Below the pieces are notes generated by a model. That model was not told the DNA's origin. It did not search any database and worked only from the letters and a program-made list of their open reading frames with translations. Shown here in pieces: positions 8,377 to 38,916 of a DNA stretch of 50,448 nucleotides; within the stretch, counting starts at the first letter, position 1; each line of letters begins with the position of its first letter. This DNA comes from an uncultured Mycoplasmatota bacterium. GTDB lineage: Bacteria; Bacillota_I; Bacilli_A; RF39; UBA660. Location of the stretch: NCBI GenBank assembly GCA_946554325.1, contig CAMNSB010000002.1, positions 1-50,448 on the forward strand, written 5' to 3'. The position numbers were made by a program, and so were the translations under genes.

Positions 8377-8816
8377 TTTGTCGCTTCTCTTTCTTTTATA
8401 ATTGGTTTATCCTTTACAAAGGTTTCCATTTTTTCTTCTTCTCCTAGATATTCGTATCCTAATCTGTTTAATGTATGAATCATACTTTTATCTTCTTTTT
8501 CAGCAAAAACAAAAGATTCTTCCATATCCATTGAATCTAGTGCATAGTCTGTGGCAATACCTATCATTCTTCTTGGACCTTCTTTTTTGATTTTTGGAAA
8601 AGTTAAGATACAACTTCTAATATCACTATTTGCGGTAATATTACAACTATCGATAATATCAAAGTCTTTTAATAAATAAAGACTTTCATTTATGGTCCCA
8701 TAGTTTTTAGCAATACTTGATTCCATTAAGGGATGCTCTTGTTCAAAAGCTAGGACTGCATTTAGTTCTAATAAAGCACCTGTTGGTTTTCCGACTAATA
8801 ACTTTTCTCTACTCAT
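8367..8816 (-). CDS. Hypothetical protein (first gene of the flippase-like/GT4 operon)
   Basis: 149 aa ORF that overlaps the downstream gene by 10 nt. No motif I can name with confidence. Confidence 0.45.
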   Translation of the reverse strand: MSREKLLVGKPTGALLELNAVLAFEQEHPLMESSIAKNYGTINESLYLLKDFDIIDSCNITANSDIRSCILTFPKIKKEGPRRMIGIATDYALDSMDMEESFVFAEKEDKSMIHTLNRLGYEYLGEEEKMETFVKDKPIIKEREATKWR

Positions 8817-8824
8817 AATTCCCC

Positions 8825-10003
8825 CTATTTTATCGCTTCAATGCCTGGTAGACTTTTTCCTTCTAAATATTCAAGAGTTGCTCCTCCTCCTGTTGAGATG
8901 TGATAGATTTTATCTTCTACCTTTGCATTTTTTGCTGCGGCTACAATATCGCCTCCACCTAGTATTGTCTTTATATTCTTTTCTGCTAGATTATTTAATA
9001 CTTCATTTGTTCCTAATTTGAAGTTTTCTAACTCGTAGACACCAAGAGGTCCATTCCATAGTACCAGTTTAGCATCTTTTAGATGATTTTTAAATATTTC
9101 TATTGTTGATGTGCCAATATCTAGTCCTATATCGTCAAAGTCTAGTTCATCAATACCTTTTTCTGTTACTGGAGTTTCATCACTAAACTCACTTGTTACT
9201 TTAAAATCTACTGGTAGTATTATTTTTTCTGGATACTTTTTTGTTATTTTTTCACAAAAAGATAAGTGTTCATTATCACAGATAGAGTTTCCAATTTCAT
9301 AGCCTTCTGCTTTTAGAAAGGTAAAGGCCATCCCTCCTCCAATTAAAATTTTATCGGCTTTTGCTACTATATTTTCTATTACACCAATTTTATCCCCTAC
9401 TTTGGAACCACCTAAAATTACAATAAATGGTTTATTGGGGCAATTTAATTCTTCTAATGCACTCAATTCTTTTTCTATTAGAAAACCAATGCAGCTTGTT
9501 TTGATGTGGGAGGCAATTCCAACATTAGAGGCATGGGCACGATGTGCTGTTCCAAAGGCGTCATTTATAAAAATATCAGCAAGATGAGCCCAATAAGCAC
9601 CTAATTCTTCATCATTTCCGCTCTCTTTTTTTCCTTCTATATCTTCAAATCTTGTATTTTCTAAAAGAAGGACTTCACCTGGTTTTAGGCTACTTACTTT
9701 TTTCTCTACCTTTTCTCCTCTAGTCTCTTCTATAAATGTTATTTTTTGTTTTAAAAGTTTTTCTAACTCTTTGGAAACAGGTTTTAATGATTTTTCTTTT
9801 TTATCTTCTTCTGTTTTTACACGTCCTAAGTGAGAAAGAAGAATTACTTTTGCTTTTTCTTTGATGCAATACTTTATCGTCTCTAAACTTTTTTCAATGC
9901 GAGTATTATCGATTATTTTCCCTTTTTTTAGTGGAACATTAAAATCACAACGAATGATTACTGTTTTATTTTTCATATTTACATCTTTTAAACACTTTTT
10001 CAT
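8825..10003 (-). CDS. pgk: Phosphoglycerate kinase
   Basis: 392 aa. IRCDFNVP N-terminal motif and C-terminal ISTGGGATLEYLEGK. GGAGG RBS 7 nt upstream of ATG 10003. Confidence 0.93.
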   Translation of the reverse strand: MKKCLKDVNMKNKTVIIRCDFNVPLKKGKIIDNTRIEKSLETIKYCIKEKAKVILLSHLGRVKTEEDKKEKSLKPVSKELEKLLKQKITFIEETRGEKVEKKVSSLKPGEVLLLENTRFEDIEGKKESGNDEELGAYWAHLADIFINDAFGTAHRAHASNVGIASHIKTSCIGFLIEKELSALEELNCPNKPFIVILGGSKVGDKIGVIENIVAKADKILIGGGMAFTFLKAEGYEIGNSICDNEHLSFCEKITKKYPEKIILPVDFKVTSEFSDETPVTEKGIDELDFDDIGLDIGTSTIEIFKNHLKDAKLVLWNGPLGVYELENFKLGTNEVLNNLAEKNIKTILGGGDIVAAAKNAKVEDKIYHISTGGGATLEYLEGKSLPGIEAIK

Positions 10004-10069
10004 TTCGAATCCTCCATTTTCTTTTTCATTATAACATACATCTTTCTTTTAGAGCAAAAAATTAAATTG

Positions 10070-10093
10070 AAAAAGGCGACTTTATAGTCTCCC
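10070..10093 (-). terminator. Possible weak terminator/attenuator between gap and pgk
   Basis: Minus-strand GGAGACU-AUAA-AGUCGCC (one A.G mismatch) followed by U5. Confidence 0.3.
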
Positions 10094-10132
10094 TCTTCTT
10101 TTTTATCTTTACCTATTTCATCAGAGCTACGT

Positions 10133-11143
10133 TCATTTATTAATGTTACATAAGTATTTTGCAGTACGTACCATTTGGGCAGTATAACTCATTTCATTAT
10201 CATACCAAGCGACTACTTTTATTAATTGTTTTCCATCTACTTCTAGTACACTTGTGGATAGAGCATCTACAACTCCTCCTTTGTTAGAACCTATGATATC
10301 ACTTGATACAATTGGGTCTTCTGTGTATCCTAATGTTTCGTTTGTATTTTCTTTTAGTGCCTGATTTACTTCTTCTTTGGTTACATTTTGGTTTAACTCT
10401 AGTACCAAATCAATTACAGAACCAGTTGATACTGGAACACGCATTGCTGTTCCATCTAGACGTCCTTCTAGGTCTTTTATAACTTTTCCAATGGCACTTG
10501 CTGCACCAGTGGATGCTGGAATGATATTGGCAGCGGCTGCACGTCCACGGCGAGCACGAATTCCTTTTTTATGTGGGACATCTAGTGTTGCTTGGTCATT
10601 GGTGTAGGCATGAACTGTCGTCATGTATCCTTTTTCAATTCCAAATTTATTATGAATTACATTTAAAACAGGGGCTAGACAGTTTGTTGTACAACTTGCT
10701 GCAGAAATGATCTCTTCTTCTCCTGTTAACTCTTTTTCATTTACATTATATACAATCGTTTTTAAATCTCCCTTTGCTGGAGCAGAAATTACTACTTTTT
10801 TAGCACCTGCTGCAATATGGGCAGACGCTTTTTCTTTATCTGTAAATCTTCCTGTACATTCCATTACCACATCAATATCTAATTCGCTCCAAGGTAAGTT
10901 TTCTGGGCTAGTCTCTGCATAAACTTTTATTTTTCTTCCTCCTACAATGATAGCATCCTCTTCATTTGTAATTTCATCTACTCTATAATTTCGATGGTTC
11001 GTATCATACTTTAATAAGTAGGCAAGTTGTTCTGCATCTGTTAAGTCATTAATTGCTACTACTTCAAAATCATTACTTTCTTCCATTAATCTAAAAACTA
11101 ATCTTCCAATTCTTCCAAATCCATTGATTGCTACTTTTATCAT
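10133..11143 (-). CDS. gap: Glyceraldehyde-3-phosphate dehydrogenase
   Basis: 336 aa. NGFGRIGR NAD-binding motif and active site SCTTNCLAP. Confidence 0.95.
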   Translation of the reverse strand: MIKVAINGFGRIGRLVFRLMEESNDFEVVAINDLTDAEQLAYLLKYDTNHRNYRVDEITNEEDAIIVGGRKIKVYAETSPENLPWSELDIDVVMECTGRFTDKEKASAHIAAGAKKVVISAPAKGDLKTIVYNVNEKELTGEEEIISAASCTTNCLAPVLNVIHNKFGIEKGYMTTVHAYTNDQATLDVPHKKGIRARRGRAAAANIIPASTGAASAIGKVIKDLEGRLDGTAMRVPVSTGSVIDLVLELNQNVTKEEVNQALKENTNETLGYTEDPIVSSDIIGSNKGGVVDALSTSVLEVDGKQLIKVVAWYDNEMSYTAQMVRTAKYLCNINK

Positions 11144-17751: not shown

Positions 17752-20565
17752 TCACAGAATTTTTGTTAAGAATTTACCTGTGTACGACTCTTTTACTTTT
17801 GCTACTTCTTCTGGAGTTCCAGTTGCCACAATTTGTCCTCCCAGGTCTCCACCTTCTGGTCCAAGGTCAATGATGTGATCTGCTACTTTTATGACATCTA
17901 GATTGTGTTCAATGACGACTACTGTATCTTTATTATCTACTATTTTTTGTAAAATTGCAAGTAGACGCTTGATATCGTGGGTATGAAGTCCTGTGGTTGG
18001 TTCGTCTAGAACAAACAGGGTTTTTCCTGTTGCTTTTCTTTGTAATTCTTTAGCAAGCTTTACCCTTTCTGCTTCCCCTCCTGATAAGGTTGGAGCACTT
18101 TGTCCTAGTTTGATGTAACCTAAGCCAACATCTTCTAATACTTGCAATTTGTTCTTAATCTTGGGAACATTTTCAAAAAATTCTAGTGCTTCGCTTACTC
18201 TCATATCTAGGACATCTGCAATATTCTTATCTTTATATTTTATGTTTAGAGTTTCTCTATTATATCTTGTACCATTACAAACTTCACATGGAACATATAC
18301 ATCTGGTAAGAAGTGCATCTCAATTTTTTTCACACCATCTCCACGACATGCTTCACATCTTCCACCTTTTACATTAAAAGAGAATCTATTTTTTTCATAG
18401 CCATACATTTTTGCTTCTTTGGTTGTTGTAAATAGGGTTCTAATATCATCAAATACTCCTGTATAGGTTGCTGGATTACTTCTTGGTGTTCTTCCAATAG
18501 GGCTTTGAGATATTTCCACTATTTTATCTAAGTTATTGATACCTAAGATTTTCTTGTGCTTTCCAGGACGATCTTTAGAACGATATAGTTCTTTTGAAAT
18601 ACTCTTGCATAATATTTCGTTGATTAGACTACTTTTTCCACTTCCGCTTACTCCCGTTATACAAGTAAATGTTCCTAATGGTATTGTTACATCAATATTT
18701 TTTAAATTATTTTCTTCTGCACCTTTTATAGTCAATTTTTTGCCAGTGCTTTTTCTTCTGTTTTTTGGAACTTCAATACATAATTTTCCACTTAAATACT
18801 TTCCTGTTAAACTTTTTTCGTTATTCATTACTTCTTGTGGAGTTCCTATTGCCATAATTTTTCCACCACGGTCTCCTGCTTCTGGACCAATATCTACTAG
18901 ATAGTCACTGGCAAGCATAGTATCAGTATCATGTTCTACCACAACCAAGGTATTTCCTAAGTCCCTCATTTCTAAAAGGGAATTAATTAGACGTTCATTG
19001 TCCCTTTGATGGAGTCCAATACTAGGTTCATCTAATACATATAAAACTCCTGTTAGACGAGAACCAATCTGGGTTGCTAGACGAATTCTCTGAGCCTCTC
19101 CGCCAGATAAAGTTCCAGCACTTCTATTTAGTGTTAAATACTCTAAGCCTACATTTTTTAAAAATTCAAGGCGGGAATTAATTTCTTTTAATACTAAATT
19201 TGCAATTTGCTTTTGTTCTTCTGATAATTTTAAATTTTGAAAGAAAGGGATTAATTCTTTAATACTTAAACAAGTAACTTCATAAATACTTTTCTTTCCT
19301 ACTTTTACTGCTAGAACATCATCATTTAGCCTTGCTCCATGACAGGTTTCACAAGTATATTCTATCATGTAATGTTCTAACCAATCTCTAATCCAAGTAC
19401 TTGTAGTTTCTCTATATCTTCTTTCCAGATTTGTAATAATTCCTTCATAGAAGTCATCACTATTTGTAATGTTTCCACTTTTGGTCGCATAATGAAAATG
19501 AATGATTTCATCACTTCCATACATAATAATTTGTTGTTCTTTGGTGGTTAGTTTTTTAAATGGTTTATCCATATTAATTTTATAATGCTTACAAACACAT
19601 TCCAGTTTTTTATAATAAATACCATCTTGATCATCACTCAAAGTTTTAATACATCCTTCATTGATGCTTAGACTTTTATCTGGGATTACAAGGTCAGGGT
19701 CAATTTGTTGTTTAATTCCTAATCCTTTACAATCTGGGCAAGCTCCAAAAGGGGCATTGAAACTAAAGATATTTGGTTCTAACTCTGGTAGTGAAAACTC
19801 ACAGTATGGGCAAGCAAAGGACTCTGAGAATAACAATTCTTTAGCATTATCCCCTAATATTTGAATGATTACTTTTCCTTTGGATAGCTTAACCGCTTGC
19901 TCTAGCGACTCTGATAGTCTGCCACGAATGTCTTCTTTTAGGATAATTCTATCTACAACGACATCAATATTTTCACGCTTATTTTTATCTAGTATAATTT
20001 CTTCACTTAAATCAAACATTTTTCCATTGATACGAACTCTTATGTAGCCTTCTTTTCTAAGACTATCTAATAATTCTTTATGTGTTCCTTTTTCACGGTA
20101 TGTAACAGGGGCCATTATAATAATTTTGGTTCCTTCTTTATACTCCAAAATTTTATTTGCCATTTCCTCTACACTTTGTGATGTGATAGGGATATTATGA
20201 TTTTTACAATAAGCGACTCCAATACGGGCAAATAAAAGACGCAAATAATCATAAATTTCTGTTACTGTTCCTACAGTTGAACGTGGGTTTTTACTTGTCG
20301 TCTTTTGGTCAATACTAATAGCAGGGGAAAGTCCTTCAATGCTATCTACATCTGGCTTTTCTGTTCCACCTAGAAATTGACGGGCATAGGCAGATAGGCT
20401 TTCTACATATCTTCTTTGTCCTTCTGCATAAATAGTATCAAATGCAAGGGAACTTTTTCCACTACCACTAACTCCAGTCATTACGATTAATTTATTTTTT
20501 GGAAGTTCAAGGGAAACATTTTTTAAATTGTTCTCACGAGCTCCTTTGATTATAATTTTATCCAT
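17752..20565 (-). CDS. uvrA: Excinuclease ABC subunit A
   Basis: 937 aa. Two ABC modules (GVSGSGKSSL twice, LSGGEAQR/LSGGEAER) and zinc-finger CxxC pairs. Confidence 0.97.
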   Translation of the reverse strand: MDKIIIKGARENNLKNVSLELPKNKLIVMTGVSGSGKSSLAFDTIYAEGQRRYVESLSAYARQFLGGTEKPDVDSIEGLSPAISIDQKTTSKNPRSTVGTVTEIYDYLRLLFARIGVAYCKNHNIPITSQSVEEMANKILEYKEGTKIIIMAPVTYREKGTHKELLDSLRKEGYIRVRINGKMFDLSEEIILDKNKRENIDVVVDRIILKEDIRGRLSESLEQAVKLSKGKVIIQILGDNAKELLFSESFACPYCEFSLPELEPNIFSFNAPFGACPDCKGLGIKQQIDPDLVIPDKSLSINEGCIKTLSDDQDGIYYKKLECVCKHYKINMDKPFKKLTTKEQQIIMYGSDEIIHFHYATKSGNITNSDDFYEGIITNLERRYRETTSTWIRDWLEHYMIEYTCETCHGARLNDDVLAVKVGKKSIYEVTCLSIKELIPFFQNLKLSEEQKQIANLVLKEINSRLEFLKNVGLEYLTLNRSAGTLSGGEAQRIRLATQIGSRLTGVLYVLDEPSIGLHQRDNERLINSLLEMRDLGNTLVVVEHDTDTMLASDYLVDIGPEAGDRGGKIMAIGTPQEVMNNEKSLTGKYLSGKLCIEVPKNRRKSTGKKLTIKGAEENNLKNIDVTIPLGTFTCITGVSGSGKSSLINEILCKSISKELYRSKDRPGKHKKILGINNLDKIVEISQSPIGRTPRSNPATYTGVFDDIRTLFTTTKEAKMYGYEKNRFSFNVKGGRCEACRGDGVKKIEMHFLPDVYVPCEVCNGTRYNRETLNIKYKDKNIADVLDMRVSEALEFFENVPKIKNKLQVLEDVGLGYIKLGQSAPTLSGGEAERVKLAKELQRKATGKTLFVLDEPTTGLHTHDIKRLLAILQKIVDNKDTVVVIEHNLDVIKVADHIIDLGPEGGDLGGQIVATGTPEEVAKVKESYTGKFLTKIL

Positions 20566-20626
20566 ATTATCTACTTCTCCTTTTGTTATTAGAAAGTAAT
20601 ATATCTATTTCCTTTAGCTGTGTCAT

Positions 20627-20635
20627 ATTATAACA
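20627..20635 (-). promoter_or_regulatory. Candidate uvrA proximal promoter (extended -10)
   Basis: Minus-strand TGTTATAAT, about 60 nt upstream of the uvrA ATG. Confidence 0.4.
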
Positions 20636-20700
20636 CTTTTTTTAAAATTTGTCTTAGGAAATTAACGGAAAACTACGAAGTAATTTTTTCCCTTACTTGA

Positions 20701-20729
20701 AATATACATTGCAAACAAATGTTTGTCAA
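20701..20729 (-). promoter_or_regulatory. Candidate uvrA distal promoter overlapped by a palindromic operator
   Basis: Minus-strand TTGACA (20724-20729), 17-nt spacer, TATATT (20701-20706). The spacer contains the inverted repeat CAAACA-nn-TGTTTG (20712-25), which resembles a Cheo/LexA box (CGAAC-N4-GTTCG) with symmetric G->A/C->T changes. Confidence 0.4.
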
Positions 20730-20745
20730 CAAAAATTAAAAAAAT

Positions 20746-21672
20746 CTATCTACTTTTCGGTCTTGTAGATAGAACTTTTTCGTATTGACTCATAAAATCA
20801 TTTTCATCTTCGCTACTTGTTGCGATTGTTGTTACTAGATAGTTAAACTTTTTATAATCTTCAGGTAAAGTTAGAAACTCCAAAAGATATTTTCCTGTTT
20901 CTAAATCTTTTTCTACCTCATAGGTTAGTCGTTCTATATCAAATTTCTCTTCATTAATCGCATTTACTAATTTTAAAGAAAAATTGAGATTATTTTGAAT
21001 TGTTTTTTCATTTAGTGTTCCATTCGGATATCTAATTTCCATTCTTTTACTTACTCTATAGTCTTGTAAGCTAATGCCATCTCTTTTTACAAATGTCGCT
21101 TGATCATGATATAGCAAATTATATAAATAATCTGTGTGTTCATTAAATTCTATTTTGTTTACTTTGTTCAGTAAAGTTGGACGCAGATGCCTAGCATACG
21201 TTTCTTTTTCATCTCGAATTAAAAAACAATCTCCCATATAATATAGGTCCATTTCATTTTCATATATTGACACTATTTTGGCAAGTGTTTCCATAAACTT
21301 TGGTGGTTTTTTTACTTTTTCTAACTTAATATTTATTTGATTACTGCAACTATTATTAATTTTGGCTCCATTTTCCCTTAATATTTTACATATTTTCTTT
21401 AGCTCTATCCAATCTATTTTTTCATTATTATAAAGTCTACTTGAGATTTCTCCTCCATATATCTTTTTTTCTTTTTCTACTGATACTGTACTATCTATAT
21501 CTAAGTAATTTCTATTATAAATAGTACTACTTGATTTGTGGTTTCTCATATAGACTATTGGTATTTCTGTTTTTTGAAATTGTTTTTCTAATTGTTCTAG
21601 GGAAGCATCTACAAATTCTAGTTCTTGTCCATATGGATACTTGGTAATTCCTATATCATATCGATAGATCAT
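20746..21672 (-). CDS. Amidoligase-like (glutamine-synthetase-fold, Amidoligase_2-type) protein, possibly degenerate
   Basis: Motif order typical of the family: N-terminal G-x-E-x-E (YGQELEF), mid GGEISSR, GA-x-x-N-x-SC (GAKINNSCSNQINI) and C-terminal MEIRYPNGTLN (the family has lEfR...gTld). Start set to ATG 21672 behind AAAGGAAG. Confidence 0.4.
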   Translation of the reverse strand: MIYRYDIGITKYPYGQELEFVDASLEQLEKQFQKTEIPIVYMRNHKSSSTIYNRNYLDIDSTVSVEKEKKIYGGEISSRLYNNEKIDWIELKKICKILRENGAKINNSCSNQINIKLEKVKKPPKFMETLAKIVSIYENEMDLYYMGDCFLIRDEKETYARHLRPTLLNKVNKIEFNEHTDYLYNLLYHDQATFVKRDGISLQDYRVSKRMEIRYPNGTLNEKTIQNNLNFSLKLVNAINEEKFDIERLTYEVEKDLETGKYLLEFLTLPEDYKKFNYLVTTIATSSEDENDFMSQYEKVLSTRPKSR

Positions 21673-21729
21673 CGTGACCACTTCCTTTTTTTAGAACATA
21701 TTATAAATCTTTTTTTGTATTTTTTCAAT

Positions 21730-23184
21730 TTATTTTTGATTTGAGGTTTTTAATTCTTTTATTTTTCTTTTGGCATAACTTGTTTTTACTTCTTTTTCCC
21801 AATCTCTACATGGTCCAATAAAATTTTCATCTGTTTTTATTTTTACTCGGTCTTCATTTTTTAACATGTAGTTTAGAGAAACTTCTTCTTCATTCACTAT
21901 AGCATTCGTTAAATATGGGGCATTGTTTTCATCTATTCTGTAGGCAAAATCCATTAGGCAAGCATCTATTGGTAATTCTATTACTTCTCCTGTTTGGTCA
22001 TGAATTACATGAATGTGTTTTGCAAATAGTTCTGTTTTTAGGCAATTTACAAATGCTTGATTACTTGTTATTGTCTCATTTGCATCTATTAAATAACTGT
22101 AGAATTGACTTTTCTTTTCTAATTCTTCTTGCATATAATATTTTGCATTTTCGTGATAAAATTCCCAATATGCTGAAAGTCCTTTAGCAGCAATTTTGTG
22201 CATTCTTTCCGTTCTAATTTGAGCTTGTACATGTCTTCCTTCTAAACCATAGACAGTAGTGTGAAGGGACTGATAAAGGTTGGTTTTGGGACTACAGATA
22301 TAGTCTTTCATTTTTCCTGGAACTGGTTTAAATTTTCTATGAATTAGACCTAAACTTTGGTAGCATTCAAAGAAATCTTCTACTACTATTTTTAAAGCTA
22401 GAAGATCATTCATTTTGGCAAGATTTTGATGTTCCTTTAAATAGTTAGAGATTCCATAGATACTTTTTATTCTTGGCGTAATTTTACTAGTAATCCCTTC
22501 CTTTTTTAGGGCATTTTTAATTATTTCAGACATTTCTTCTAAGCATTCTTTACTTTTCTCTTCTAATTTTTCTCTTGTTTCTTTGGCATATTTATAGGTA
22601 TCTGGTTCTAAATACATAAGAGATAAATCTCTTAGTTCTACTTGTGTTTCATTATCCCCTAAGTAGTTTGCTGTTGGTGCCATGATGTCCATTGTTTCTT
22701 TGGCATTTTCTATTTGTTTTTCATACCTTTTGTACTGTAATGTTCGCATATTGTGCTTACGATCTGCTAATTTTATTTGAGGAATCCTAACGTCTGTTTT
22801 TATTCCTACTGATAACTTTCTGATATTTGCCATATTCTGTTCTTGTTTTGTAGAAAAATTTAATCTACTAATTTTTGAAACACCATCTGTTAGAATTGCT
22901 ACATCTTTATTATACTCTTTTTCAATATCTTCTTTTGTGATATCTGTATCTTCAATCGTATCATGTAAAAGGCATGCACAAATAGTGTCTCTATCTGCAT
23001 AGCGTAAGGCCATTAAATAAGCAACATATAGAGGATGGCTAATATAAGGGTCTCCACTTTGTCTATAGACTCCACTATGCAAACTTTTGGCATCCTTATA
23101 AGCATGCATTATCATCTTAGCATCTTCTTCTTTGGTATAAGTATTTACTAGTGTCATTAAATCATCAATTGTTGGATTTTTCAT
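21730..23184 (-). CDS. RelA/SpoT homologue: HD hydrolase + synthetase-like + TGS, lacking the distal C-terminal regulatory domains
   Basis: 484 aa. HD motifs (ISHPL, LLHDTIEDT, ADRKHNMRTL), a RelA_SpoT-like region (PRIKSIYGI, DYICSPKTNLYQSLHTTV, QAQIRT) and a TGS-like segment (GEVIELPIDACLMDFAYRI...RVKIKT). Only about 40 aa follow the TGS. Confidence 0.85.
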   Translation of the reverse strand: MKNPTIDDLMTLVNTYTKEEDAKMIMHAYKDAKSLHSGVYRQSGDPYISHPLYVAYLMALRYADRDTICACLLHDTIEDTDITKEDIEKEYNKDVAILTDGVSKISRLNFSTKQEQNMANIRKLSVGIKTDVRIPQIKLADRKHNMRTLQYKRYEKQIENAKETMDIMAPTANYLGDNETQVELRDLSLMYLEPDTYKYAKETREKLEEKSKECLEEMSEIIKNALKKEGITSKITPRIKSIYGISNYLKEHQNLAKMNDLLALKIVVEDFFECYQSLGLIHRKFKPVPGKMKDYICSPKTNLYQSLHTTVYGLEGRHVQAQIRTERMHKIAAKGLSAYWEFYHENAKYYMQEELEKKSQFYSYLIDANETITSNQAFVNCLKTELFAKHIHVIHDQTGEVIELPIDACLMDFAYRIDENNAPYLTNAIVNEEEVSLNYMLKNEDRVKIKTDENFIGPCRDWEKEVKTSYAKRKIKELKTSNQK

Positions 23185-23203
23185 TTTCTCTTCCTCCTAT
23201 AGC

Positions 23204-23246
23204 AAAATGACAGTTTTAAGCTCTTAAGACTTAAAACCGTCATTTT
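23204..23246 (-). terminator. Strong hairpin/intrinsic terminator between the small ORF and the Rel-like gene
   Basis: Minus-strand AAAAUGACGGUUUUAAG-[9-nt loop]-CUUAAAACUGUCAUUUU forms a 17-bp stem with one G.U. The 3' arm ends in U4, and the Rel-like RBS AGGAGG follows 6 nt later. Confidence 0.65.
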
Positions 23247-23334
23247 ATTTTTTCATTATTTGTTTTGGACACAATAATGGTGCTAGTGGAAAGTTTTGAA
23301 TACTATTTTGATTATTTACTATCACTACTACCAT
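23245..23334 (-). CDS. Unannotated 29-aa ORF downstream of the radical SAM/SPASM gene (candidate peptide substrate or leader peptide)
   Basis: GGAGG (23340-23344), a 5-nt spacer, then the ATG at 23334. Translates MVVVIVNNQNSIQNFPLAPLLCPKQIMKK*. The stop codon overlaps the first bases of the terminator stem. It is below the ORF-track length cut-off. Confidence 0.35.
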   Translation of the reverse strand: MVVVIVNNQNSIQNFPLAPLLCPKQIMKK

Positions 23335-23383
23335 AGAAACCTCCAAAATATTTATATTAATATTATCACTTTTTCTTTAAATG

Positions 23384-24226
23384 TCAATCTTTTTTTATCT
23401 TAAATCTTTCTTTATAGGTACAGCTTTGACATAACTCTTCACTAGGATAATGCGTCTGAAAACTTTCTTTTAATGTATTTAATCTAGGAGAAGCAAGAAT
23501 AGAGGAAAAACTTTCTTTATAAATATTTCCAAGGTTTATGATACCGTTACTGTCTAGACAACATGGTACTATAGTTCCATCTACTAAAATAGCAATCTGT
23601 GTTTTTAAGGCCATACAATATCCACAAGATTTGTGATTTGTCTTTCTGGGCCAGATAAATTCTTTTTCTTTATCCACATAAGTAGTAGAATTTATTTTGA
23701 CATTTTGCTCACATTTTAACTTTTCCACAATATTGGGGGATAAGTTGTAATATTTCTTTAATCTTTCCACAATTTTTGTTGATTTTTCATCTAGTCTAGT
23801 ATCCTTTAGTGTCCACAATCTATAAATTATTAGAATATCTTCTCTGATGATGGTAGTGGCTGTTAGTATTTTTTCTATGATGCCACTATTTTTATATTCT
23901 GCATGGAGAGAGATGTTTATCTTCTTTACAGAAGGATGAGTATTTAGCATATCAACTTTTTCGGGTAGTAAGATACCATTTGTTGTGATATTTACCCTAA
24001 GAGCATAAAAATCAGCAAGAGTAAGAAGGGAGTCTAGATGTGGGTGAAGAAGAGGTTCTCCTTTTACGTGTAAATAAATGGTGTTTGTATAAGGTTTGAT
24101 TTCTTTTAAAATACGTTCAAACTCTCCTATTTTCATCATTCGAGTTTTTCTGTTATCTTTACTACAGAAGGAACAGGCGAGATTGCAATGATTTGTTATT
24201 TCTATATATACTTTCTTAAATTTCAT
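23384..24226 (-). CDS. Radical SAM enzyme with C-terminal SPASM/twitch-type Cys cluster
   Basis: 280 aa. CNLACSFC (CxxxCxxC) at residues 14-21. C-terminal cysteines CGYC...PCC...CQSC. The ATG overlaps the uvrB stop (TAATG). Confidence 0.85.
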   Translation of the reverse strand: MKFKKVYIEITNHCNLACSFCSKDNRKTRMMKIGEFERILKEIKPYTNTIYLHVKGEPLLHPHLDSLLTLADFYALRVNITTNGILLPEKVDMLNTHPSVKKINISLHAEYKNSGIIEKILTATTIIREDILIIYRLWTLKDTRLDEKSTKIVERLKKYYNLSPNIVEKLKCEQNVKINSTTYVDKEKEFIWPRKTNHKSCGYCMALKTQIAILVDGTIVPCCLDSNGIINLGNIYKESFSSILASPRLNTLKESFQTHYPSEELCQSCTYKERFKIKKD

Positions 24227-26172
24227 TATTCTGACTTCATTTCAAACAAGATGTCTCTAAGTTCCATGGCACGTTCAAAGTCTAGATTCTTTGCGGCTTC
24301 TCTCATTTCTTGTTCAACCTTTTCTATGGTTAGTGCTATTTCTTTTTTGGTCATTTTCTTCTTAGGAGATGATGCCTCATCTACATTACTAATTACTTCT
24401 CTAATTTCTTTTTGGATTGTTTTTGGAATAATGCCATACTCTTTATTATATGATTCTTGAATTTTTCTACGACGAGCAGTTTCTGTGATTGCCTGATTCA
24501 TACTATCTGTTACTTTATCTCCATACATAATAACGTGTCCTTTGGCATTTCTTGCACAACGTCCGATGGTCTGAATTAAACTTCTGTTACTACGTAAGAA
24601 TCCCTCTTTATCTGCATCAAGAATTGCAATTAGGGAAACTTCTGGGATATCGATTCCTTCTCGTAATAAGTTAATTCCTACTACTACATCGTATTTTCCT
24701 GCTCTTAAGTCGTGAATGATTTTTAGTCTTTGGAGAGTTTTTACTTCGGCATGTAAATAGGCTACTTTGATATCTAACTCTTTTAAATAGTTTGTTAGCT
24801 CTTCTGCCATACGAATCGTAAGGGTTGTTACTAATGTTCTTTCATTTAATTCAATTCGCTTGTTAATTTCTCCTACTAAGTCATCAATTTGGCCTTCTGT
24901 TTTTCTCACTTCTACTGTTGGATCTAAAAGCCCTGTTGGTCGGATGATTTGTTCAATGAATTTTCCTTCAGTGTGTTCTAGTTCATAATCCCCTGGCGTT
25001 GCAGAAACATAGATTGCTTGATTGATTTTTTTCTCAAATTCATCAAACTTTAATGGTCTATTATCTAGGGCGCTTGGAAGACGAAAGCCGAAGTCTACTA
25101 AATTCATTTTGCGAGCACGGTCTCCATTATACATTCCTCTTACCTGTGGTAGAGTAACATGAGACTCATCTATAACAAGTAGGTAGTCATCTGGAAAGAA
25201 GTCCATCAAAGTAGTTGGAGTTTCTCCAGGGCTTCTTCCTGCCATTGGGGCAGAATAGTTTTCAATTCCTGTGCAAAAACCTGTTTCTTCCAACATTTCA
25301 ATATCATAATTTGTCCTTTGTTCTAGGCGTTCTGCTGGTAGGGGTTTATTATTTTCTTTAAAATATGCAAGCCGTTCTTTTAACTCTTTTTGTATTCTAA
25401 CAATGGCATCTTTTAATTTATTATCACTTACTACGAAATGACTTGCTGGAAATAGACTAATGGTTTTTTTATTTGAGATAATTGCTCCTGTTAGAGTATC
25501 TATTTCACTAATCCTATCAATTTCACTACCAAAAAACTCAATTCGGTAACCCGTCGTATTTTGATATGCTGGAATGATTTCTAAGGTATCTCCTCTTACT
25601 CTAAAAGTTCCACGTTTAAAGTCCATGTCGTTTCGCTCATATAGCATGTCCACTAGTTTTGTAAGTACTGCATTTCTTTCCACTTCGTCTCCTACATTTA
25701 GAGTTAACATTTTATTTTTATACTCATCTACTTCACCAATACCATAGATACAAGAGACACTAGCAACCACAATAACATCTCTACTTGATAAAAGACTACT
25801 AGTAGCACGATGACGAAGTTCATCTATTTCATCATTGATGGATGAGTCTTTTTCAATATAAGTATCGGTGGAAGGAACATATGCTTCTGGTTGATAGTAA
25901 TCGTAGTATGACACAAAATACTCTACTCGGTTATTTGGAAATAGTTCCTTAAATTCACTGTAAAGTTGTCCTGCTAGTGTTTTATTGTGAGCAAGTACTA
26001 AGGTTGGCTTATTTACTTCTTTTATTACATTTGCAATTGTAAATGTTTTTCCTGTTCCTGTTGCTCCTAGTAGGACTTGTTCTTTTTTTCCTTCTTTAAT
26101 GCCATTCACTAATTCTTTTATTGCTTTTGGTTGGTCCCCATTGGGGGTATATTTTGATACTAATTCAAACAT
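24226..26172 (-). CDS. uvrB: Excinuclease ABC subunit B
   Basis: Helicase motifs GATGTGKTF and DESH, and a C-terminal UVR domain ([16 protein letters not shown]). Start set to ATG 26172 (MFELVSKY) behind GGAGG; the ORF-track start 26244 adds 24 unlikely residues. Confidence 0.96.
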
Positions 26173-26356
26173 TTTCTGACCTCCATCTTTTCGCATATAT
26201 TTACTGTAAAAACCTATATTGATTTCTATTTTATATAAATTCATTTAGAATAGCAATATATTTTAATTAGAAAAAGAAAAGACTCTTTCAGCTTTTATGT
26301 TAATTTATTGTTTTCATTGATTTTTGATATGATTTCTCAGTATTTTGTAAGAGTAT

Positions 26357-31822: not shown

Positions 31823-32918
31823 TTATTCTCCCCTTTTTAAATTACTTTGTATAAATAAATCTATATCACCATCTAATACTTTTGAGACATTACTTGTTTC
31901 TATATTGGTACGATGATCTTTTACCATGGCGTATGGATGCATAATATAGCTTCTAATTTGTGAACCAAATTCTATATTTTTTTGTTTACCTTTGATGTTA
32001 TCTAGTTCTTGTTTCTGTTTCTCTTCTTCTAATAATAGAAGTTTCATTTTTAGCACTTTCATTGCTTGTTCCTTATTCTGAATTTGGCTTCGCTCATTTT
32101 GGCAGGTTACTATAATTTTAGATGGTAGATGGGTAATTCTTACTGCTGAGTCTGTGGTATTTACCCCTTGTCCACCACAACCGCTAGAGCGATAGACATC
32201 AATTTTTAAGTCTTTTTCGTCAAGTGTAATATCTATTTCTTCTTTCATTTCTGGGGTTATCTCTACAGAAGCAAAAGAGGTATGACGCCTATTATTTGAA
32301 TCAAATGGAGAAAGACGAACTAAGCGATGTACTCCTTTTTCTTGTTTTAAATATCCATAGGCATTTGGTCCTTTGATTAGAATTGTGGCACTTTTGATTC
32401 CTGCTTCTTCTCCATCTTGATAATCTAATAATTCTGTTTTATATTTTTTAGCCTCACACCATCTTCTGTACATTCTATAAAGCATTAATGCCCAATCACA
32501 AGCTTCTGTTCCTCCTGCTCCAGAATGTATTTCTAAAATACAGTTATTATTATCATAGGGACCACTTAAGTACATATAGTATGATAGGTCTTCTAAATCT
32601 TTTTCTATTTTTTCTAAATCACTAGAAATCATTTTTTTTGTTTCTATATCCTCTTCTTCTAATATTTCTAGAAATTCTCTATCCGTTTCCAGACGGCTTT
32701 TCATATCTACTATGGAGCTTGTTATCTTTTTTAGTTCACTTACTCTACTAATTACTTCTTCACTATGTTTTTTATTATCCCAAAAGTTAGGTTTTAGCAT
32801 CTCTTGTTCTAGGGATTTTAATTCTTCTAGGTTTTTTTCTACGTCAAAGTGACCTCCATAATTCTTTTAACTCTGTTTCGGTTTGTTCTAAAAATTTTAC
32901 TATTTCATTTTTGTTCAT
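31823..32918 (-). CDS. prfB: Peptide chain release factor 2 (requires programmed +1 frameshift)
   Basis: Frame 0 from ATG 32918 gives MNKNEIVKFLEQTETELKELWRSL, then an in-frame TGA (32846-32844). The +1 frame continues DVEKNLEELKSLEQEMLKPNFWD... into the 325-aa ORF, which contains the SPF and GGQ motifs. Confidence 0.93.
32843..32857 (-). promoter_or_regulatory. prfB autoregulatory +1 frameshift site
   Basis: Minus-strand GGAGG (32857-32853), 3 nt, then CTT TGA C (32849-32843). This is the canonical SD-like element plus slippery CUU-UGA-C. Confidence 0.9.
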
Positions 32919-34051: not shown

Positions 34052-34938
34052 TTATTTATTTGATATTAATTTACTTTCTTCTTTTACTTGTTTTTGTAAT
34101 AATTCCAAATCTTTCATACTTTTACTATTTTGTAAAGATTTCATTTGTCTTTTGGTAGATTTATTTAATCTTATTAATCTTTCTCTCTGTGATAAACCAT
34201 CTTCAATTAATTCGGCACTTGTATTTTGCAAGTTATTTAATATTACTAAATGAAGTAAATCGGTATAATCTCTTATATTTCCTTTTTTAGCAAGTTCTGG
34301 ATTACTTTCTTTCCATTCTTTTGCTGTCATTCCAAATAATGCCACATTTAAAATGTCTGCCTCATCAGAATAAACATATTGTTTTTGACTTTCTGTTAAA
34401 TTAGGAACTATACATTTCTTTATTGCATCAGTATGAACTACATAATTAACTTTTGATAGAAGTCTTGTTGCACTCCACTCTAGTTTATATTGATATGCTT
34501 CATTAGTTTTTAATCTTTCGAATTCAGTTATTAAATATAATTTGAACTCTGGAGATAGCCAACTAGCAAATTCAAAGGCAATATCTGGATGAGCAAAAGT
34601 TCCAATGCTATACCTTCCCCCTTAGAGATAATACCTATTGCATTGGTTCTTTTAATCCATTGAGATGGGGACATTGCAAAAGAATTTCTACCATACTCAG
34701 TTTTAATTTGGTCGAATTCAACCAAATTAAAATCAGGATTATGAATTTCTTCCCATAAACCAATGTAATCAATAGTTGTAATCCTTCTTAACCAATTCTT
34801 TACTGTAAAAGATGGATCACTAGAATTTTGATACTTAGCTAAATCTGTTAATGAAATATAATTAACATTACCTACTCTTAAAATTCCCACTTTATTTTCT
34901 TTAACAATAATTTCTGTTGTTACTTCATCTTTTTTCAA
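34052..34938 (-). pseudogene. KilA-N domain protein gene, disrupted by a 1-nt frameshift in a G5 run
   Basis: The N-terminal ORF (34531..34938) carries a KilA-N-like start (VGILRVGNVNYISLTDLAKY). At the C5/G5 run 34617-34621 the alternative frame continues GGRYSIGTFAHPDIAFEFASWLSPEFKLYLITEFERLK... without stops, in frame with ORF 34052..34345. Confidence 0.75.
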
Positions 34939-34967
34939 TAGATATTATCTCACTTTCTTGAAATTTA

Positions 34968-35150
34968 AAAGGATGTTCACATATTTTTTCTGTTTACATC
35001 CTTTATTTTTAGGGCATTTAAGCCATATTTTTTAATTATTTGCAAACAAATATGAATTTGTTAACATTTTTTAACTTTGCGTGAGTCTAGCAAACCCTTT
35101 ATTTATCTCATTTTCCGCAGCAATTTTTGTACTTTTTGCCCGAACCACAA
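34968..35150. repeat. Distal copy of the att-like direct repeat (displaced secA 3' tail plus terminator region)
   Basis: Collinear with 38743-38916. Shared identical blocks are AAAGGATGT (34968/38743), CATCCTTTA (34997/38773), AATTTGTTA (35055/38831) and CCCGAACCACAA (35139/38905), with one ~10-nt indel. Confidence 0.75.
35108..35149 (-). pseudogene. Displaced secA 3'-terminal remnant (13 codons plus stop)
   Basis: Minus strand TGT GGT TCG GGC AAA AAG TAC AAA AAT TGC TGC GGA AAA TGA translates CGSGKKYKNCCGK*. Live SecA ends CGSGKKYKQCCGK*. Confidence 0.75.
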
Positions 35151-35282
35151 AAACTTTGTACTCCCATATTATCAATACTTACAATATTTATAATATTATT
35201 GATATTTCTATGTTTTTAGGACTAGGTAATTCCTATATTATCCATATTATTAGTATCATTTTTATTATAAATATTTCTCTAC

Positions 35283-35310
35283 TGTGGACAAATTGAGGAC
35301 ATTGTCCACA
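35283..35310. repeat. Inverted pair of TGTGGACAA motifs (candidate integrase arm-type sites)
   Basis: TGTGGACAA (35283-35291), 10 nt, then TTGTCCACA (35302-35310). A third copy, TTGTCCACA, lies at 38795-38803 near the other island end. Confidence 0.4.
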
Positions 35311-35364
35311 TTCGTTCACTGGTATAAGTATATCATATTTTAATTATTTTATAAATTGTGCAAT

Positions 35365-36384
35365 TTATTTATTTTCTATTTGCTTTGTTTCATTTAACAA
35401 TCTATCAAAATCAGATACATAATTATTATCTTGAATGACTTTGAACTTTTCATATTCACTTTCGGCTTTCTCTTTGGCTTGTTTATGAGAAATTTTACCT
35501 TTTCCCTCTAAAACATCATAATGAAATACTCTTAATGCATTTTCTACTTCATTCTTCCAATCATTCATATACATTGCAATATTTCTTTCAGCATTATTTT
35601 CGGCAATATCTAAAAATAAGTTGACTAAATTATTCAAGTTCTTAATTTCTTTTTCATCTAAATAATTTTTAGCAATTATTACATCCGATTTTAGTATCTT
35701 GCCATCAGGAGAATTCTCCCATGTTGTAAGTCCCATATTATCTTTTTTTGCATCAACTCTATTATAAACAATTTCAGCAGCAGTATGACCAGTGATAGCA
35801 AAGTGGAATTTATTTTGAATCGTTTTATAAAACGTTATTGCCATATCACTATCTTTATCATAATCAATTGAACATTCAGCAAATATATCAGTAATTTTTT
35901 GATAAAACATTCTTTCACTTGTACGAATTAACTTAATTCTTTCAAGCAATCTTTTAAAGTATTCTTGATCAGATTTTCGTGCTTTCATAAATCTTTCATC
36001 ATTTAAAGCAAAACCTTGAACCATATAGTCTTTGATTATTTTATTAGCCCAAGTTCTAAATTTAATTGCCTTTTTGGAATTAACTCTAAATCCAATAGAA
36101 ATAATCATATCAAGATTATAATATTTTGTATTATAAGTTTGTTTTCCGTCATTACCCATATGTGCAATTTTTGCACATGTGCTACTTTCATTTAATTCTT
36201 CATCTTTATAAATATTATTGATATGCCTAACAATGCCACTTCTATCAATATTAAAAAGTGTAGATAAAGCTTCAGTATTTAACCAAACATCTTCGTTTTC
36301 AAGTAATACTTCTACTTTAGTATTCCCATCTTCATCATTATAAAATAAAATATTTTTTTCATTTCCAATTAGTTTATCATTCAT
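35365..36384 (-). CDS. RhuM-family (Virulence_RhuM) protein
   Basis: N-terminal ILFYNDEDGNTKVEVLLENEDVWLNTEALSTLFNIDRSGIVRHINNIY and YNLDMIISIGFRVNSKKAIKFRTWA are typical of RhuM-family proteins. Start set to ATG 36384 behind AAGGAGG. Confidence 0.8.
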   Translation of the reverse strand: MNDKLIGNEKNILFYNDEDGNTKVEVLLENEDVWLNTEALSTLFNIDRSGIVRHINNIYKDEELNESSTCAKIAHMGNDGKQTYNTKYYNLDMIISIGFRVNSKKAIKFRTWANKIIKDYMVQGFALNDERFMKARKSDQEYFKRLLERIKLIRTSERMFYQKITDIFAECSIDYDKDSDMAITFYKTIQNKFHFAITGHTAAEIVYNRVDAKKDNMGLTTWENSPDGKILKSDVIIAKNYLDEKEIKNLNNLVNLFLDIAENNAERNIAMYMNDWKNEVENALRVFHYDVLEGKGKISHKQAKEKAESEYEKFKVIQDNNYVSDFDRLLNETKQIENK

Positions 36385-36469
36385 TACTTGCACCTCCTTT
36401 AACAATTATTCATTAAGTAATCAGCTAATAATATTATACTATTTTTTATCTTGCTTAACAATGTTACTA

Positions 36470-37722
36470 CTAAAATTTATCTCTCAAATTTATATCTATT
36501 TCTTTTTCTATTGATTCACAAATTTTAATTAAGTCATTAGTGGTACTAGTAATATAATAATTTTCTGTTGTTTCAGTTCTACTATGACCTAACAACTTAG
36601 AAATGTCTTTTATTTCATTTCCTATTCTTAATGCTTTTGTAGCAAAACTGCCTCTTAAATCATAAAATCTGCAGTTGATTCCTAATTCGTGATGAATAAT
36701 TTTAAATGGATATCTTATAATATCTGTTCCAGAATATGTGCCATCTTTCCTAGTAAATACCATTTCTACTCTATTGCGTTTAGAATAACTTTCCATAATT
36801 TTATATTCCACTAACTTACCAAATTTATTTTTTACTTCTTCTATAATATATCTTTTATACTTTTTTGCATATTGATTTTTTAAATTATTTTGTATATTTT
36901 TATAATCTATTAGTACTGCATATAAACTATCACAAATATAAACCTCCCTTTGACTACCTGGTGTTTTAGTTGTAGCTAAGTACCATCTTCCACTTTCTCC
37001 TTTATCTTTTGCATACACAGTTTTATTTATGTTAATAATTCTATTATCTAAATCTATATCATCCCAAGTTAAAGCAAATACCTCTCCTGTTCTCATACCT
37101 GTATAACAAGCAGTAATAAATGCACATATAAATACTTTATTATTCTTAAATCTATTTAAAATTATTTCTATTTCTTCTTTAGTATAAACGTGCCTTACAT
37201 CGTTTTTTTTGATTCAAATGATAACACTCTAGGTATTTCTAAATCACAGGCTATATTATTTTTAATAAAACCAAAATAATATGTTGCATCTCTTAAAGAG
37301 CTTTTAATAACCTTTTGATAATTTCTTAATGCTTCTTTTGTACTAGAAGTTTGGTATAACTTTAATAATGCTTGATTTAAAATATATGGAGTTAGAACTG
37401 ATAACTTATAATTACCTAATTCTTCTTTTATATTACCAAAAGACTCTTTATATCTCTTTGCAGTAGAATATTTATAATTTATTTCAAAATATTCTTTCAT
37501 CCAGTAATCTAAATAATCTCCATATAACATATTACATTCATTAGTAGTTACCCCATTAATGAATTCATCATATGCTTTTTGTCCTGCTATAAATGCTTCA
37601 TTTTTAGTATTAAATCCACTTTTAGTTATTTGCTTTCTTTTACCATTTACCTTTCCTGCTTCAAAACAATATTGATAGACATTCCCTCTTTTTCTTATAT
37701 TGATCATCTTATCATCTCCCAT
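36470..37722 (-). pseudogene. int: Tyrosine recombinase/integrase with Arm-type N-terminal domain, split by a 1-nt frameshift in an A8 run
   Basis: The N-terminal ORF (MINIRKRGNVYQY...NGKRKQITKSGFNTKNEA, SAM-like core-binding part) stops at 37195. The catalytic ORF (MRTGEVFALTWDDI, YDLRGSFAT, LLGHSRTETTENYY) is open back to 37213. One extra A in the run at 37203-37210 would fuse them into a protein of about 415 aa. Confidence 0.85.
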
Positions 37723-37747
37723 TCTTTGATTATTATTATTCTACATC

Positions 37748-37779
37748 AAAAAAGTGAAGCATTTTTTCTACACTTTCAC
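37748..37779 (-). terminator. Possible terminator between the membrane cassette and the integrase gene
   Basis: Minus-strand GUGAAAG...CUUCAC (6 bp with one bulged A) followed by U6. Confidence 0.4.
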
Positions 37780-37818
37780 ATTTTAACTATCATTTTTTAA
37801 ATTTTCTTTTTTCATTTA

Positions 37819-38232: not shown

Positions 38233-38233
38233 C

Positions 38234-38698: not shown

Positions 38699-38742
38699 AC
38701 CTTACCGCCTCTCAATTTATTATTTTAACTATTTTCTACAAT

Positions 38743-38916
38743 AAAGGATGTCAACAAATTTTATTTTGCTGGCATCCTTTAATTTTAATGGATTTTGTCC
38801 ACATTTTATTCAATTGGTTGACAAACAACAAATTTGTTACCTTTTTGATTTTTTACTTTTCCCTTATTTTATCTTACTTTCCACAACATTGCTTATACTT
38901 CTTTCCCGAACCACAA
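38743..38916. repeat. secA-proximal copy of the att-like direct repeat
   Basis: See 34968-35150. It covers the last 14 codons of secA and about 130 nt downstream, including the hairpin AAAGGATG...CATCCTTT and one TTGTCCACA motif (38795-38803). Confidence 0.75.

Follow-up and report, generated by a model that had tools for sequence, protein, structure and literature searches.

Three probably independent units between uvrB and uvrA of an uncultured Mycoplasmatota bacterium, including a shortened Rel homologue with a leader ORF and a hairpin

In the E. coli pyrBI leader, an open reading frame (ORF) runs to or into an intrinsic terminator, and a ribosome following RNA polymerase closely prevents the hairpin, no antiterminator being needed. 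In Rel, the ZFD/CC and RRM/ACT domains bind the ribosome. SpoT[Hs] of Moraxellaceae (Acinetobacter baumannii SpoT) has an active HD domain and a non-catalytic pseudo-SYNTH domain, and is a monofunctional alarmone hydrolase (PMC9974481). RshC[HS], a long RelA/SpoT homologue (RSH) of six Bacillus strains, is cut short inside its helical domain (Atkinson et al. 2011, PMC3153485). Here we describe a shortened RSH gene, preceded by a small ORF and a hairpin, that lies between uvrB and uvrA together with a radical S-adenosylmethionine (SAM) gene and an amidoligase gene. It was found in a stretch of 50,448 nucleotides from an uncultured Mycoplasmatota bacterium (contig CAMNSB010000002.1), called the window below, whose G+C content is about 30%.

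On the minus strand, the gene order is uvrB, a radical SAM/SPASM gene, a 29-aa ORF, a hairpin, a 484-aa RSH gene, a 308-aa Amidoligase_2 gene and uvrA. An earlier note, made from the sequence alone, had listed these features; all were found in place on the minus strand, and every domain name given to the block proteins was confirmed by Pfam. The same note had proposed that an accessory block has colonised the uvrBA junction. Extra genes are indeed present in this interval, and we found no support for one functional module. We favour, with moderate confidence, three independent units that came to lie side by side in this lineage and do not make up a system: the radical SAM gene, a cassette made of the leader ORF, the hairpin and RSH, and the amidoligase gene.

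The evidence comes from the gene neighbourhoods of relatives, whose loci were compared with the window and are labelled L001, L004, L053 and so on. The full order uvrB-radical SAM-RSH-amidoligase-uvrA is found only in the window, L001-L003, L010, L011 and L012, with uvrB proteins 89-95% identical. L011 has an additional ORF, and some of the full-order loci carry two tandem amidoligase genes. At 80-84% uvrB identity (L013, L015), the amidoligase gene lies upstream of uvrB, the radical SAM gene downstream of uvrB, and there is no RSH gene. At about 72% (L004, L016, L017), the amidoligase gene is 4-5 kb from uvrB. Elsewhere, it is located between trpS and a rhomboid gene (L007) or in the xerD-rarA interval (seven loci), and a distant 340-aa subfamily adjoins thrS/gltX, ileS, ruvX or other genes. 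An RSH 52% identical to that of the window is encoded between ftsW and a C39-peptidase/YcaO cluster. In a metagenome scan, none of 80 RSH loci had uvrB, the radical SAM gene, the amidoligase gene or uvrA within 6 kb of RSH. RSH and the amidoligase gene are thus scattered in relatives, the pattern that the earlier note had itself named as refuting a single block.

The radical SAM gene has a different history. Its family is large and uniform (277-283 aa; the best 120 matches are at least 56% identical), and it lies between uvrB and uvrA in all five further homologue loci fetched (L053, L056, L138, L139/140, L141). Some of these loci carry another gene after it. Because the radical SAM gene is always there, sometimes with an extra gene, the uvrB-uvrA interval of the lineage is never empty and accepts further genes. 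The gene is therefore an old resident of the interval in a clade of uncultured gut Bacilli, and the idea of a recently arrived block does not apply to this lineage-wide occupant. The nearest relatives of all block genes are metagenome-assembled genomes with depositor labels of the Bacilli/Tenericutes/Mycoplasma type: "uncultured Bacilli bacterium" (from the mouse-gut catalogue MGBC and from human, rabbit and ruminant guts), "uncultured Tenericutes bacterium" and "Mycoplasma sp. CAG:472".

The features of the interval and of its two flanking genes are as follows.

24226-26244, minus strand: ORF of uvrB, with the Pfam domains UvrB_inter, UvrB, Helicase_C and UVR.
23384-24226, minus strand: radical SAM/SPASM gene, 280 aa (Pfam Radical_SAM 1.1e-12, SPASM 1.2e-13).
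23360-23387, minus strand: promoter-like site of the leader/RSH unit (TTGACA, 16 nt, TG-n-TAATAT), from the scan and conservation.
23245-23334, minus strand: leader ORF of 29 codons, MVVVIVNNQNSIQNFPLAPLLCPKQIMKK, with GGAGG 7 nt upstream.
23203-23243, minus strand: terminator-like hairpin (23207-23243) plus a short U-run, dG -16.7 kcal/mol.
21730-23184, minus strand: RSH gene, 484 aa (Pfam HD_4 1.9e-30, RelA_SpoT 8.4e-26, TGS 1.8e-9).
21700-21728, minus strand: promoter-like site before the amidoligase gene (TTGAAA, 17 nt, TATAAT), 11/12 matches.
20746-21672, minus strand: Amidoligase_2 gene, 308 aa (Pfam 9.7e-11, 42.4 bits against a cut-off of 22).
20701-20729, minus strand: distal uvrA promoter-like site (TTGACA, 17 nt, TATATT), from the scan.
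20627-20655, minus strand: proximal uvrA promoter-like site (AAGACA, 17 nt, TG-n-TATAAT), from the scan and conservation.
17752-20565, minus strand: uvrA, with the Pfam domains UvrA_DNA-bind, UvrA_inter and ABC_tran.

The true start of uvrB is likely the ATG near 26172, located after a GGAGG, which gives about 648 aa; the uvrB relatives have 648-653 aa, matching this start. The uvrB stop and the radical SAM ATG share a TAATG overlap. The promoter scan as a whole was at chance level (45 sites for 45.2 expected), so the promoter calls rest on position and conservation.

The RSH protein was aligned to B. subtilis Rel (6yxa) over residues 7 to 478. Its end aligns to Rel residue 480, at the beginning of the helical domain. 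TGS is kept, and the ZFD/CC and RRM/ACT domains are absent. The protein belongs to a family of about 480 aa with the layout HD + SYNTH + TGS. It scores 432 bits with NCBIfam TIGR00691, below the cut-off of 499, and covers positions 1-449 of the 687 of the profile. In the HD domain, residues R41, H50, H74, D75, E78, D79, D141 and N145 are invariant in 120 homologues. In the SYNTH domain, D260 (RelSeq D264) is kept and Gln320 replaces the catalytic glutamate (RelSeq E323, B. subtilis E324). Glutamine occupies this position in 120 of the 120 best homologues, all of about 480 aa, and all 18 short forms that the metagenome scan yielded (476-516 aa) have it as well. The 62 long Rel proteins of the same scan (most 716-829 aa; three run off the contig) all have glutamate. 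None of the 138 short-form sequences therefore has both catalytic carboxylates of the long RSH. Short and long forms also differ in other motifs: AE.G.AAHW becomes AS(F/Y)GLTAYW, DL.A.R becomes DLLALK, and R.KH..S becomes R.KN..G. Their genomic contexts differ as well. The genes apt, recJ and hisS adjoin 35, 34 and 27 of the 62 long-form genes, and none of 24 short-form genes. The canonical recJ-apt-rel-(dtd)-hisS context is thus kept by about half of the long forms and by no short form.

According to a passage of PMC13299517 that cites Hogg et al. 2004, D264G and E323Q abolish detectable synthetase activity of RelSeq. Gln320 is the natural equivalent of E323Q, the change that abolishes synthesis in that passage; RSH is therefore most likely a (p)ppGpp hydrolase only, as judged from its sequence. 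This agrees with the suggestion of the earlier note that RSH is hydrolase-competent and probably synthetase-dead, the HD motif being intact and glutamine standing at the predicted synthetase catalytic position.

Two points count against a hydrolase-only enzyme. The SYNTH domain is otherwise strongly conserved (R238, K240, Y243, D260, K293, D294, K300, N302, Y304, H308, Q322, R324), a surprising feature in a dead domain; residual or altered catalysis, or nucleotide binding of a regulatory kind, may be retained. Since the nucleotide-binding surface is otherwise invariant, selection acts on SYNTH, whether it serves as a pseudo-SYNTH scaffold, senses a ligand or is a weak or altered catalyst. Moreover, a hydrolase-only enzyme would have no substrate in a genome without another synthetase. 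No small alarmone synthetase or second RSH was found in about 0.9 Mb of clade DNA, a patchwork from many genomes that is not informative on this question.

RSH could instead be the bifunctional housekeeping Rel of the organism, still synthesising despite Gln320, the truncation just removing ribosome control. The invariance of all other substrate-binding residues of the synthetase would fit such an enzyme, and N-terminal Rel fragments are catalytically active in other species. It is also the sole RSH seen in the 0.9 Mb, with the same restriction on what this patchwork can tell. Against this, the identical change abolishes detectable synthesis in RelSeq, at least in the passage of PMC13299517 mentioned above, glutamate is retained in every long Rel of the scan, and further changes accompany glutamine in the short forms. 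The gene also lies outside the canonical recJ-apt-rel-hisS context, and its TIGR00691 score is below the cut-off. We regard a bifunctional housekeeping Rel as unlikely.

Plasmids were searched with RSH in PLSDB, which returned just ordinary full-length Rel/SpoT genes, mostly on records between several hundred kb and several Mb in size that this database counts as plasmids. A Bacillus match (L143) was tried as a reference for RshC and discarded, as it is an ordinary 727-aa Rel in a normal recJ-apt-rel locus. Nothing specific on the stringent response in this lineage came up in a literature search.

Upstream of the putative hydrolase gene, the leader ORF ends with a stop codon (TAA, 23245-23247) directly next to the 5' arm of the hairpin. 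The stem has 15 contiguous pairs, about 18 when flanking A-U pairs are added, and is followed by UUUUG; the z-score of the leader is -3.6. From the hairpin end to the RSH ATG there are 22 nt in the window and 20-29 nt in the five closest species. Because the hairpin ends only 22 nt before the RSH start, RSH would be transcribable only by read-through. A promoter, a Shine-Dalgarno (SD) sequence, a short ORF and a terminator therefore precede the gene, with no room for another promoter, which is the layout of an attenuator. The small ORF and the terminator, treated as separate items in the earlier note, are one unit belonging to the RSH gene.

This unit is conserved. The -35 and -10 elements and their spacing are retained in the window, L001, L010, L011 and L012, the site starting at the stop codon of the radical SAM gene. 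The GGAGG, an open frame of 28-30 codons and the hairpin are conserved in the five closest species, and the frame stays open through indels. In the stem, 96% of cells are paired across the 5 species and 4 pairs are changed on both sides, compared with 29-49% for slid controls. The same ORF-hairpin layout precedes RSH in L009, in a different genomic context. A screen of short-form loci, carried out with corrected RSH start codons, found the leader-hairpin unit in 20 of 23. The ORF has 17-48 codons, with an SD-like motif in 19 of the 20 cases; relative to the first hairpin base, its stop falls at -5 to +28 nt, and the U-tailed hairpin ends 6-36 nt before the RSH start. The arrangement thus travels with the RSH gene across relatives and genomic contexts. 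No SD-preceded ORF of this kind was found in 59 long-form loci, where six ORF ends are the ends of upstream genes such as apt. Among 214 genes of at least 150 aa from the short-form loci, the pattern was found at 17 RSH genes and just 2 others, one of which is an artefact, an internal methionine of mreB. The leader peptide sequences are not conserved among distant family members, as is typical of regulatory leaders.

We infer that the small ORF and the hairpin form a ribosome-dependent attenuator of RSH. With RSH, they would make up a self-contained cassette that has its own promoter. On completing the leader ORF, a ribosome would sit over the 5' arm of the hairpin. Brisk translation of the leader, close behind RNA polymerase, would then block the hairpin, and the hydrolase gene would be read through. 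If the ribosome were late or stalled, upon starvation or inhibited translation, the hairpin would form and transcription would stop. The supply of hydrolase would follow translational capacity, with less hydrolase when translation falters, a direction that suits such an enzyme.

Three points count against an attenuator: the divergent short forms L070, L072 and L075 have no leader, the U-run after the hairpin is short (4-5 U), and the start codons of the long-form controls were assigned automatically. No alternative antiterminator structure is evident in the minimum free energy or centroid fold of the leader. Rfam found nothing in the whole window at the gathering threshold, and nothing in 20500-24300 even at E <= 1; with no Rfam match in the block, riboswitch and T-box readings were dropped. 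A literature search on leaders of rel genes found nothing specific.

The hairpin may also be a mere terminator of the uvrB-radical SAM transcript, with the small ORF a chance frame and RSH reached by unregulated leaky read-through. It does come after the radical SAM gene, short ORFs and A/U-rich hairpins are frequent at 30% G+C, and the leader peptides have a non-protein-like composition. However, short RSH genes in unrelated contexts are preceded by this layout too, complete with an SD and a separate promoter-like site; in the 214-gene screen the layout is almost confined to RSH, and in five species the reading frame is open through indels. These findings make a plain terminator quite improbable.

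Two observations on the leaders are added here. The second non-RSH gene flagged by the screen is the hibernation-factor gene hpf (42118-42645), which is preceded by an SD-preceded 17-codon ORF ending at a U-tailed hairpin 35 nt before the start (42646-42760). In addition, the leaders of the window, L009 and L058-L074 are rich in cysteine (5.0%, compared with 1.2% in local proteins, an enrichment of about four-fold), and at least one cysteine is found in 15 of the 16 non-redundant leaders. DNA this AT-rich would give about 2.6% cysteine if translated at random, the leaders being enriched about two-fold over that. This richness is only a hint.

According to the proposal of an accessory module, the radical SAM gene, the small ORF, RSH and the amidoligase gene would have colonised the uvrBA junction together and would serve nucleotide signalling or peptide modification upon DNA damage. 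The genes are on the same strand and closely spaced, and the five closest species keep their order. There, RSH and the amidoligase gene also remain neighbours with no terminator between them, so that co-transcription is possible in these species; this last point tells against fully independent units. On the other side, the three genes are unlinked beyond the narrow group of closest species, the radical SAM gene is ancestral in the interval and RSH and the amidoligase gene are not, and each unit has a separate promoter-like site.

The marks of a mobile insertion are missing from the block. Its G+C content is 0.28-0.30 compared with 0.30-0.35 in the flanks, with no sharp compositional break, and a search found no integrase, tRNA or significant flanking repeat at the block, just short weak repeats. 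Upstream of the amidoligase gene, 45 nt (21682-21726) match the proximal uvrA promoter stretch (20609-20653) with 71% identity. This resemblance may be a relic or duplication from gene insertion, or chance between AT-rich promoters.

The link to DNA-damage expression is weak. A DinR/LexA-like box, CGAACnnnnGTTyn, is located about 90 nt upstream of uvrA in L053, L056 and L013. In the window, a degenerate LexA/DinR-like palindrome, CAAACATTTGTTTG (20712-20725), overlaps the distal uvrA -35. Its exact form is unique, and loose matches are not above chance. The corresponding region is missing in L001, L011 and L012, and no LexA box was found upstream of uvrB. The only candidate damage-responsive element thus stands before uvrA, so that RSH and the amidoligase gene lie upstream of it and not under its control. 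The proximal uvrA site, an extended -10 promoter, is conserved in the window, L001, L011, L012 and L053, whether the amidoligase or the radical SAM gene is upstream. Two promoter-like sites precede uvrA, where the earlier reading had named promoter candidates. Taken together, the neighbourhood data largely refute an accessory module, which we hold to be very unlikely.

With three independent units as the preferred reading, the arrangement can be put together as follows. The radical SAM protein would be expressed together with uvrB through the overlapping stop and start codons. The cassette would have landed between the radical SAM gene and uvrA in one genus-level group. The amidoligase gene has its own promoter-like site and no fixed partner, its place by RSH and uvrA being a matter of history, and uvrA keeps its own conserved promoters.

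The idea that the 29-aa ORF encodes the precursor of a ribosomally synthesised and post-translationally modified peptide matured by the adjacent radical SAM/SPASM enzyme, which appeals to the position of this cysteine-containing ORF directly downstream of the enzyme gene and to the habit of SPASM enzymes of modifying small cysteine-containing peptides encoded nearby, is hardly credible, as the ORF-hairpin units precede short RSH genes in loci with no radical SAM gene within 6 kb, no small ORF is conserved in radical SAM loci lacking RSH (L053, L138 and L141 have 57-145 nt of promoter DNA before uvrA), so that no precursor gene is conserved beside the would-be maturase, and the peptide sequences are not conserved across the family.

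The radical SAM protein itself has the motif CX3CX2C (C14, C18, C21) and invariant C204, C222, C223, C266 and C269. The cluster motif and a Cys-rich C-terminal auxiliary-cluster domain are those of radical SAM/SPASM-twitch enzymes. The AlphaFold2 model has a pLDDT (predicted local distance difference test) of 86, and its best PDB matches are BtrN, EpeE, anSME, MoaA and SuiB. BtrN, EpeE and anSME, the best Foldseek matches (E 1e-9 to 5e-7, TM about 0.56-0.60), share the CX3CX2C cluster and the auxiliary-cluster domain with it. Sequence identity is just 14-22%, and our protein has no adjacent peptide or sugar-pathway gene. None of the NCBIfam equivalogs (MoaA, W-cofactor maturase, viperin, PqqE and others) reaches its cut-off. 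The best match, TIGR04317, scores 71.7 bits for a cut-off of 380, and the others are far below. A literature search found no paper linking such a radical SAM protein to a uvrBA operon. A defence-system reading was dropped: PADLOC gave weak viperin-like matches to the N-terminal part of the radical SAM protein and nothing for the other genes.

Many relatives carry a Cu-oxidase_4 (PgeF/YfiH-like) gene of 240 aa between uvrB and the radical SAM gene, overlapping the start of the latter: L138 (4292-5014), L141 (4310-5029), L139/L140 and probably L056 (4724-5440). It is absent in the window. The observation suggests that the Cu-oxidase_4 and radical SAM genes are a conserved gene pair.

The amidoligase scores above the gathering threshold of Amidoligase_2 (PF12224) and has a fold like that of glutamine synthetase (GS) and gamma-glutamylcysteine ligase. 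The AlphaFold2 model (pLDDT 93) finds YbdK (GCS2), glutamine synthetase III, PafA and Dop as best PDB matches. This confident model and its GS-fold matches point to a stand-alone GS-fold ATP-dependent carboxylate-amine ligase. In common with YbdK/GCS2 and PafA/Dop, it has G-x-E-x-E in the first strand, further conserved glutamates and an E-x-R motif; it differs from them in that TM is just about 0.4 and identity about 10%. In the family alignment, G15, E17, E19, H45, E75, E138, R153, E212 and R214 are invariant. The histidine of a CSNHI motif, which would be a second-metal ligand by analogy with gamma-glutamylcysteine ligase and GS, is present in 26 of 30 members and changed in 4, including Gln112 of the window. 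The substituted metal ligands reported earlier come down to this one putative position, the other ligands being intact. As the change is sporadic, we would not call the enzyme dead from its sequence.

Clusters at 50% identity were counted in an exhaustive profile search. About 35 belong to the 300-aa core subfamily, 469 are found at E <= 1e-30 and 4543 at E <= 1e-3. Clustering of all neighbours in 45 loci revealed no recurring partner gene, the neighbours being changing housekeeping genes. In contrast with the peptide-tagging and phage Amidoligase_2 systems, no known partner (amidotransferase/Ntn, alpha-E or transglutaminase-like peptidase) stands at the amidoligase gene. A phage origin was dropped: no relatives were found in 50,697 phage records or in IMG/VR contigs, and the relatives are chromosomal and lineage-restricted. 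The protein has no PADLOC match and no NCBIfam equivalog.

Members of the amidoligase family adjoin aminoacyl-tRNA synthetase genes in at least four unrelated neighbourhoods (trpS in L007, L019 and L025; thrS/gltX in L047 and L052; ileS in L035, L038 and L044; cysS nearby in L004), by a rough estimate above what is expected. Several relatives carry tandem paralogues (L001 8001-9868; L004 8001-9869), 46% and 39-44% identical to the single protein of the window.

Downstream of uvrA, Bacillus-like synteny is retained (yvlD-like, lgt, trxB, yvcK, whiA, clpP). Elsewhere in the window, a glycolytic cluster (112-11143) is interrupted: it reads gap, pgk, five genes, tpi, spo0A (3032-3808), AAA_14/DUF4143 and gpmI. 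The five genes between pgk and tpi encode LPG_synthase_TM, a glycosyltransferase, a hydrolase, a PnuC-like protein and one unknown protein. A spo0A gene at a glycolytic position is unusual for a small-genome gut Bacillus. The genes secA (38874-41366) and prfB (31823-32800) are neighbours in Bacillus. Here, they are separated by a low-GC stretch (34500-38700, 23-26% G+C) that contains an integrase split in two ORFs (37195-37722, 36470-37096), a RhuM-family gene (35365-36405) and a KilA-N gene (34531-34938). This stretch looks like a decayed integrative element. Since other conserved operons of the window are interrupted by unrelated genes, shuffling into operon junctions is common in this genome. 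Finally, an agr-like quorum-sensing set (43173-46046) sits between hpf and a glycosyltransferase/mreB cluster; AgrB is encoded on the plus strand, whilst the minus strand encodes a GHKL histidine kinase and a LytTR regulator.

The module proposed at this junction dissolves. The case cautions that genes packed tightly on one strand can, in small genomes that rearrange fast, owe their clustering to historical accident. What merits follow-up is a large uniform family of shortened Rel proteins from uncultured gut Bacilli that carries a natural version of the synthetase-killing Glu-to-Gln change. If the reading of the leader is true, it would be an attenuator that senses translation and acts on the gene of a (p)ppGpp hydrolase, and, if confirmed, a simple example of alarmone turnover set by translation of a leader, not by binding of the enzyme to the ribosome. 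No function is assigned to the radical SAM gene fixed within the uvrB-uvrA interval or to the orphan amidoligase family, both of which are leads. Going further, alarmone control may have moved from the protein, which lost its C-terminal domains and synthesis, to an mRNA leader ORF, possibly tuned by cysteine, and, separately, the radical SAM protein may be an undescribed repair-linked enzyme. This wider picture is possible and, to us, doubtful.

How the locus compares with described systems can now be stated. As in the Bacillus-type uvrBA operon, uvrB and uvrA are on the same strand, and lgt, trxB, yvcK, whiA and clpP are preserved downstream. The differences are that uvrB and uvrA of this lineage are always separated by at least the radical SAM gene, that uvrA has its own promoters, and that the LexA-like box stands before uvrA instead of uvrB. 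By analogy with pyrBI, read-through into the structural gene would depend on a ribosome preventing the hairpin. The pyrBI leader senses UTP-dependent pausing of RNA polymerase; the RSH leader might respond to the rate of translation or to one amino acid in particular, and its sequences are not conserved.

Compared by description only, RSH resembles RshC[HS] in its HD + SYNTH + TGS layout, in the loss of CC and ACT and in belonging to Bacilli. It differs in that RshC[HS] is described as a second, divergent copy that accompanies a normal Rel, and carries the label [HS]. With SpoT[Hs], it would share the character of a hydrolase-type long RSH with a retained pseudo-SYNTH domain, derived from a bifunctional ancestor, the activity of our protein being a prediction. 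SpoT[Hs] keeps a full C-terminal region (TGS, helical, ZFD, RRM) that activates its hydrolase, whereas RSH stops after TGS. SpoT[Hs] is also a member of the gammaproteobacterial SpoT branch, its SYNTH domain has diverged strongly, and it acts alongside RelA. RSH, in contrast, is a protein of Bacilli whose SYNTH domain is nearly intact, with a single telling Glu-to-Gln change; it would, if confirmed, add an independent second example of a hydrolase-only long RSH.

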